From Escherichia coli (GTDB lineage: Bacteria > Pseudomonadota > Gammaproteobacteria > Enterobacterales > Enterobacteriaceae): DNA of 61,363 nucleotides. Shown piece by piece: positions 60,466-61,363 of this stretch. Where the stretch lies: NCBI RefSeq assembly GCF_003334785.1, contig NZ_QOWV01000020.1; one strand, 5' to 3'. Below the pieces are notes generated by a model. That model ran no database searches. It was given only the letters and a program-made list of their open reading frames with translations, and had not been told where the DNA came from. How positions within the stretch are numbered: position 1 is the stretch's first letter; every line of letters starts with the position of its first letter. A program made the translations under genes and the position numbers.

Positions 60466-61194
60466 TTAACCCGCATAAGCTGCCAGCATTTCCTGCGCCG
60501 CCAGTTTACCCAACGCATTCGCTGCGAAAGGACTGTCGCCGGTGAGAACTTTACGGTCCTTATGTACTCGCCCGGTGATGTCGTCATTAATAATGTTCAT
60601 GCCCATTTTCTTCAGCTCTTCGCCGAAGTACCAGGTGAGATGACCCGGCATATAGCCTATCTCTGGCGTTTGTTTGTCTGCGGCGTCTGGGAATGCGCAA
60701 ATGGAATAACCATTCAGTGGGTTATCGCCGTGGCGAAGCGCCAGAAAAGCCGCCGGGCCGTGGCAAAGGGAGATAACAAAACGGTCATTTTTGATTGCCC
60801 ACTGCAAAGCAGCAGCCACGTCCTGGCTTTCTGGTAAACCAATAAGTGCGCCATGACCACCAGGAACAAAGATTGCTGCATATTCGCTGTCTGCGTTGAG
60901 GCTGACGACAACATCCGCGAGTTTTTTCGGATTGCGGAACAACGATTTATGCTGCTCAAAGAATGGCATTACTTTTTCATCTTTGTGCGGCATAGCCCAG
61001 TATTCAAACTTGGTCATCAGACCGGAAATGGTCGCCACTTCGAATTCGAAACCTGCAGCATGGAGATGATACAACGGCAGCAACGTTTCAATCGGATGGT
61101 TACCGGTCGAGAACAGTTTTCCGTTATCGGTCGGCAAATAACGTTCGTCCGCGGCGATCACCAGAATTTTATGTTTACCGCGATACGGTTTTGG
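60466..61194 (-). pseudogene. hchA: Hsp31 / glyoxalase III (DJ-1/PfpI family), 5' end interrupted by IS1
   Basis: Reading frame (...PKPYRGKHKILVIAADERYLPTDNGKLFSTGNHPIETLLP...) runs into the IS1 terminal repeat at about 61195. The upstream 40 or so codons and the promoter are displaced by the insertion. Confidence 0.85.
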
Positions 61195-61363
61195 GGTAAT
61201 GACTCCAACTTACTGATAGTGTTTTATGTTCAGATAATGCCCGATGACCTTGTCATGCAGCTCCACCGATTTTGAGAACGACAGTGACTTCCGTCCCAGC
61301 CTTGCCAGATGTTGTCTCAGATTCAGATTATGTCGCTCAATGCGCTGAGTGTAACGCTTGCTG
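61195..61363 (-). mobile_element. IS1-family insertion sequence (partial, continues beyond window end)
   Basis: GGTAATGACTCCAACTTACTGATAGTGTTTTATGTTCAGATAATGCCCGATGAC... matches an IS1 terminal inverted repeat followed by the 3' end of insB read on the minus strand. Confidence 0.85.

Follow-up and report, generated by a model that had tools for sequence, protein, structure and literature searches.

An IS1 element beside truncated hchA in Escherichia coli very probably marks a deletion of about 3 kb that reaches into yedJ

The Escherichia coli DNA analysed here, a stretch of 61,363 nt referred to as the window, ends inside an IS1 element that directly adjoins a 5'-truncated hchA gene. The question raised by this locus was what lies on the far side of the element. 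The first-pass annotation had described an IS1 insertion into the 5' end of hchA, an event that would place the lost codons, the promoter and a 9-bp target duplication beyond the IS1. Comparison with complete genomes gave another answer. The window very probably represents a chromosome ending in a full-length IS1F-type IS1 that marks a single-origin, IS1-associated deletion of ~3.0–3.1 kb, and the resulting allele would have spread both vertically and by homologous recombination.

The hchA remnant and the IS1 end in the window

The remnant, hchA', was assigned by homology and by the RefSeq labels of its relatives as a 5'-truncated pseudogene on the minus strand (61194 to 60466), comprising codons 42–283 and the stop codon. 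Its TAA stop was located at 60466–60468 and the frame was uninterrupted up to 61194. The remnant corresponded to nucleotides 124–852 of K-12 hchA with 97.8% identity, and its product differed from the K-12 protein by two substitutions, A138V and L257V. In a structure-chain alignment, the translation was aligned end to end with residues 42–283 of Hsp31/HchA (PDB codes 1N57, 1ONS, and 1PV2) with an E value of ~1e-166. The NCBIfam HchA equivalog profile NF003168 assigned it to HchA with 455.7 bits, above its cut-off of 365, while only positions 43–286 of the 287 profile positions were covered. The catalytic triad Cys185-His186-Asp214 was retained; its residues are numbers 144, 145, and 173, respectively, of the query in the structure-chain alignment.

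The break in hchA lay exactly between Tyr41 and Pro42, with 41 codons gone. Codon 42 (CCA, 61192–61194) met the first base of IS1 at the junction 61194/61195, and no copy of hchA nucleotides 1–123 was found anywhere in the 61,363-nt window. The gene in the window was thus not the full-length HchA of 283 aa with its P1 segment, linker, own start codon, and promoter. Downstream, in the convergent spacer between hprS and hchA, a probable intrinsic terminator of hchA was read from the sequence at 60392–60429 on the minus strand. It would be composed of a 10-bp G+C-rich stem (60399–60408 and 60420–60429) followed by a minus-strand T-run (60392–60397), and it was not listed by the consensus scan because its loop is 11 nt long. 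On the other side of this spacer, the stop codon of hprR overlapped the start of hprS at 59000. The mechanically called hprR frame (58218–59000, 260 aa) carried a 37-residue N-terminal extension relative to the RefSeq gene, which is 672–675 bp long and starts with MKILLIEDN.

The right terminal inverted repeat (IRR) of IS1, GGTAATGACTCCAACTTACTGAT, occupied 61195–61217 and agreed at 20 of 23 positions with the left repeat (IRL) that this element has in related genomes. The IS1 family is defined by imperfect terminal inverted repeats of ~23 bp that start with GGT(A/G)ATG, and the IRR has this form. The first-pass annotation had placed the terminal repeat at about 61195, roughly 40 codons into the gene, and both values were close to exact. 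The first 169 bp of an IS1F-type element, 768 bp long in other genomes, were present on the minus strand at 61195–61363, where the window ends inside the element, and IS1 sequence in the window was limited to these 169 bp. Their identity was 100% with the complete IS1 that occupies this site elsewhere and 91.7% with a copy of IS1A; some records carrying the same allele label the element at this site "IS1-like element IS1F family transposase".

The IS1 end contained the 3' end of insB/InsAB', namely its last 50 codons and the stop codon, on the minus strand at 61210–61363. The IS1 transposase profile NF033558 matched it at positions 175–199 of 199 with an E value of 1.3e-6, a score below the whole-protein cut-off for a segment with only 50 aa of the protein. 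The transposase and hchA' are read in the same direction. The insB stop codon, TAA at 61210–61212, is in frame with hchA' and lies 15 nt upstream of the junction, so that only five IS-derived codons separate it from Pro42. The description of hchA as an open frame running into IS1 was therefore accurate up to 61194, but the frame closes at this TAA after the five codons.

The same locus in related genomes and the deleted interval

The junction between hchA' and IS1 was searched for in 5,426 complete E. coli genomes using a 404-nt probe, and matches with at least 80% coverage were counted. It was present in 446 genomes (8.2%). The best 30 of these 446 matches were 100% identical to the probe and were annotated by RefSeq as hchA next to an "IS1 family transposase". 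A longer probe of 1,651 nt, which reaches 80% coverage only when both IS1 junctions are present, again matched 446 of the 5,426 genomes. The two sets were taken as the same from their equal counts. By these matching counts, the hchA'–IS1 junction appears to be paired only with truncated yedJ (yedJ') among the complete genomes. The junction between IS1 and yedJ' occurred in 452 complete genomes as against the 446 with the hchA' junction, and the six surplus genomes could have been rearranged later on the side of the IRR or could preserve an earlier step.

Six genomes with the allele were examined, five of them as fetched loci (E2865, ML35, JKHS016, O103 RM8385, and L73) and one, 28Eco12, from the literature. 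The gene order of the five fetched loci was hprR, hprS, hchA', IS1 transposase, HD-domain protein, dcm, vsr, and yedA. In these carriers, RefSeq describes hchA' as "glyoxalase III HchA, incomplete, missing N-terminus" and the gene of the HD-domain protein, yedJ', likewise as a pseudogene "missing N-terminus". The IS1 between them was 768 bp long, had both inverted repeats, and was annotated as "IS1 family transposase, programmed frameshift". Its other end abutted codon 87 of yedJ in all six genomes, with ~3 kb missing between the two genes, which does not support the initial description of the event as an insertion into the 5' end of hchA. The copies of IS1 at hchA'/yedJ' differed by 0–1 nt over 768 bp among the five fetched genomes. 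Every carrier examined had the same junctions and a nearly identical IS1 copy, which indicates a single origin. The window itself stops 169 bp into IS1, and what follows in this genome is deduced from these relatives. No difference from JKHS016 was found in the last 6,363 bp of the window, and over the last 25 kb several carriers, JKHS016 included, matched it at 100%.

When the locus was aligned with K-12 (NC_000913.3), the left flank stopped at 2,035,958 and the right flank restarted at 2,032,821. Accordingly, 3,136 bp of K-12 sequence (2,032,822–2,035,957) were replaced by IS1 in the carriers. Relative to the intact locus of 266917_2, an ST38 strain (PMC6963479) with a more similar sequence, the missing interval was 2,998 bp. 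The interval contains codons 1–41 of hchA with its upstream region, the yedS porin gene, the rseX sRNA gene, drpB (yedR), and codons 1–86 of yedJ, an HD-domain phosphohydrolase gene whose product has lost these 86 N-terminal residues in the carriers. None of rseX, drpB, yedS, and yedJ was found in the window. The yedS gene is intact in 266917_2 and a pseudogene in K-12; drpB of 266917_2 has an internal stop codon. The K-12 hchA 5' end and upstream region were undetectable in 554 of the 5,426 genomes, a number that can include all 446 carriers.

The 9-bp sequences flanking IS1 were CGGTTTTGG on one side and GAAGAGTTC on the other in all five fetched genomes and were not duplicated, the opposite of the 9-bp target duplication for which the first-pass annotation had proposed to look. 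The same pair, CGGTTTTGG and GAAGAGTTC, is tabulated in PMC6963479. Two other IS1 copies in the relatives served as controls, and both had perfect 9-bp duplications. An IS1B in hiuH of 266917_2, a simple insertion (locus L007, 10680–11447), was flanked by GTAATCGCC on both sides, and an IS1A near yeeN of JKHS016 was flanked by AGAATTATA on both sides. The latter copy (locus L011, 13459–14226) is an extra element without counterpart in the otherwise identical window, in which its target corresponds to 14227–14235. The unequal flanks mean that the IS1 at hchA' is not a simple insertion, and they are no argument against its identity as IS1. The hchA'–IS1–yedJ' arrangement has the form of an IS-mediated deletion, in which one IS joins distant sequences and a target duplication is absent.

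Two routes would lead to this arrangement. In the first, IS1 would have inserted at one breakpoint, and intramolecular replicative transposition from this copy would then have deleted the adjacent DNA. In the second, recombination would have taken place between two directly oriented IS1 copies. Either route would end with one IS1 that lacks a target-site duplication. The loss of the duplication by adjacent deletion or by recombination between IS copies has a precedent (PMC11708052). A chimeric probe in which IS1 and a 9-bp duplication were placed at the yedJ breakpoint, as a simple insertion would leave them, matched none of the 5,426 genomes, and the equal counts of 446 obtained with the left-junction and both-ends probes speak against such an insertion at the hchA breakpoint. 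Since no intermediate was found among the 5,426 genomes, the two routes are not distinguishable, and an IS-mediated deletion is not refuted when its precursor has not survived. The most likely origin is one ancestral event, either an IS1 adjacent deletion or an IS1 × IS1 recombination. Microhomology at the junction, considered on the basis of a native sequence GAT TAC CCA that would be similar to the IS1 end, was dropped; K-12 actually reads GAC TAT CCA, without this microhomology.

Three other structures beyond the window were weighed against the IS1-associated deletion. Simple transposition into hchA, with codons 1–41, the promoter, and a duplication on the far side, agrees with the window taken alone, which ends inside IS1, and with the usual production of 9-bp duplications by IS1, as at the two control sites. 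It is nevertheless extremely improbable, given that the two probes each recovered 446 genomes, that the closest and 100% identical genomes read hchA'–IS1–yedJ', that the 9-bp flanks differ, and that 554 genomes lack the hchA 5' region. The scenario of a short solo IS1 remnant with the complete hchA 5' end just past the window draws only on the fact that 169 bp of IS1 are covered, and it can be practically dismissed: the element in all fetched carriers was full-length (768 bp), had its two inverted repeats, and was annotated with an intact transposase, and hchA nucleotides 1–123 were absent from the fetched loci. A further rearrangement in this particular genome, for instance by inversion or by a more extensive deletion via another IS1, would leave neither the hchA 5' part nor yedJ' beyond the element. 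The difference between 452 and 446 genomes means that secondary events at the hchA'/yedJ' IS1 do occur, six genomes having the IS1–yedJ' junction without that of hchA', and some carriers hold 27–40 IS1 copies. In those six genomes, however, the hchA' junction is gone, whereas the window keeps it. By the matching counts, the hchA' junction always has yedJ' opposite, and the window is 100% identical over 25 kb to genomes of this kind, so that such a rearrangement is highly improbable.

Expression and function of the truncated hchA

As the first-pass annotation had recognized, hchA' is cut off from its promoter and N-terminus, and the ribosome-binding site and start codon are gone as well. The first in-frame start candidate is the GTG at 61159–61161 (Val53), before which no Shine-Dalgarno-like sequence was visible. 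A consensus scan of 60300–61363 for outward promoters and terminators yielded two promoter-like sites against 1.2 expected, which is the level of chance. With residues 1–41, the protein would lose P1, the N-terminal segment of the dimerisation (P) domain, and probably some of the linker too, as far as the layout of P1 segment and linker is outlined for Vibrio cholerae Hsp31. The remnant is therefore best regarded, from its sequence, as a recently made pseudogene, and Hsp31/glyoxalase III is presumably not made. The 242 intact codons say little about function because the carriers differ by only ~0.1% around the locus. A caveat on the silence of hchA' is that the frame is intact and that the IS1 transposase is transcribed towards it.

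This caveat leads to the alternative that hchA' is expressed by read-through from IS1 or from a hybrid promoter, with translation from the GTG at 61159–61161 giving a product of 231 aa from Val53 that would have some glyoxalase or deglycase activity. The 242-codon frame with its catalytic triad, the transcription of insAB' towards hchA', the mechanically called open reading frame with the GTG start, and one weak promoter-like site inside insB that faces hchA' are consistent with it. Against these points stand the number of promoter-like sites, which did not exceed chance, and the lack of a Shine-Dalgarno-like sequence before the GTG. Missing from the predicted product would be the P1 segment and the beginning of the first core strand, probably together with some of the linker, and the intact frame is expected anyway among carriers only ~0.1% apart. 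Insertion of IS1 has strong polar effects, and insAB' is weakly transcribed and represses itself. Expression of hchA' in this way is thus very unlikely, and the outward promoter derived from IS1 that had been suggested for it found no support. The predicted inactivity of Hsp31/glyoxalase III held in that the intact protein cannot be made, though the cause is a deletion and not an insertion.

With the IS1-associated deletion, this genome is expected to be without Hsp31/glyoxalase III, the YedS porin, RseX, DrpB, and a functional YedJ. This is relevant when carrier strains are used in work on methylglyoxal or glycation stress or on outer-membrane permeability. On YedS and carbapenem entry, nothing directly usable was found in the literature searched.

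Spread of the allele and comparison with known systems

The yersiniabactin high-pathogenicity island (HPI), comprising fyuA, ybtE/T/U, irp1, irp2, ybtA/P/Q/X/S, and an integrase gene, occupied ~23200–53400 of the window. It adjoins a tRNA-Asn gene at ~53.3 kb, roughly 8 kb from IS1. When JKHS016 was compared with O26/O103-type genomes, the divergence was ~0.1% (~1 per kb) from the HPI through IS1 and ~830 bp beyond it, a tract that includes zinT-msrQP-hiuH-hprRS-hchA'-IS1-yedJ'. The divergence jumped to ~2.6% (~26 per kb) inside dcm, ~830 bp past IS1, and it was 1–4% (10–40 per kb) to the left of the HPI. Spread of the HPI together with flanking DNA by homologous recombination has been described (Schubert et al. 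2009, PMC2606025). The sequence comparisons suggest that the deletion allele was inherited vertically and was also moved between lineages by homologous recombination, the recombination tract being drawn from a handful of pairwise comparisons. The mildly interesting aspect of the locus is one of population genetics, in that a deletion allele of IS1 with a single origin lies on a recombination tract beside the yersiniabactin island. Strict linkage between the deletion and the HPI was rejected; L73 has the allele without the HPI, and 266917_2 has the HPI with an intact hchA–yedJ interval.

A stronger reading would hold that the hchA'–IS1–yedJ' haplotype is a selected allele, not a neutral scar, and that it was repeatedly imported by homologous recombination, often with the HPI, into successful lineages, O26/O103 EHEC and ST38-like clinical clones among them. 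The loss of the YedS porin, the RseX sRNA, or HchA, for example, could have been the target of such selection. This reading is unlikely.

Several other features of the window were noted in the course of these comparisons. At 54904–55127, a segment of ~1 kb with yodB was absent, leaving 222 bp between the flanking tRNA-Ser and zinT genes. The same short spacing was found in the HPI-positive carriers O103 RM8385 and ML35, and the segment is present in L73 and presumably also in K-12. Several decayed genes, identified by transfer from the JKHS016 annotation, were located at ~1030–5800 and ~10940–11890. They include a DMT transporter gene with an internal stop codon, a frameshifted PfkB kinase gene, remnants of IS66 and IS4 transposases, and cbl with an internal stop codon, the last of which was likewise found in E2865.

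The hchA'–IS1–yedJ' allele is common and already known, both as a RefSeq/PGAP pseudogene and from a published table. The deposited allele has the same junction, flanks, and IS1 (0–1 nt apart), and the window is another copy of it. The 2019 paper on ST38 tabulates this IS1 as an insertion within hchA (PMC6963479, Table 1). That table is silent on the loss of ~3 kb with yedS, rseX, drpB, and the 5' part of yedJ, and the reading as a deletion is added here. In annotation, the event is better described as an IS1-bounded deletion of ~3 kb than as an insertion in hchA. The IS deletions reported in PMC11708052 are similar in that a single intact IS lies without duplication between the joined ends, which are ~3 kb apart in the present case. 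In comparison with classical IS1 deletion formation, no intermediate was found here among the 5,426 genomes.

Other IS1-bounded deletions ending at or in hchA were compared with the allele of the window. E. coli B has an IS1-associated deletion of 41 kb from uvrY to hchA (PMC3032704). In NCTC10537, an independent IS1A-bounded deletion joins hchA' to a truncated uvrY (locus L004, 3708–5697); with dcm and the flagellar region lost, it is similar to the 41-kb deletion of E. coli B. Both differ from the allele of the window in that the element is an IS1A (~91% identical) and in that the deletion is far larger, extends to uvrY, and includes dcm and the fli genes. The allele of the window has an IS1F-type element and keeps dcm and fli. 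The part of hchA that is kept is 645 bp in NCTC10537 and 729 bp in the window. The hchA gene is a repeated end-point of IS1 deletions. A record named BL21(RP) nevertheless matched the K-12 hchA 5' end at 100%.

The surroundings of the allele follow the pattern of HPI spread described in PMC2606025, with a tract of low divergence between genomes that are otherwise 1–4% divergent, a flank of ~8 kb, and an end within dcm. Unlike in strict co-transfer with the HPI, the deletion allele also occurs apart from the island, as in L73.
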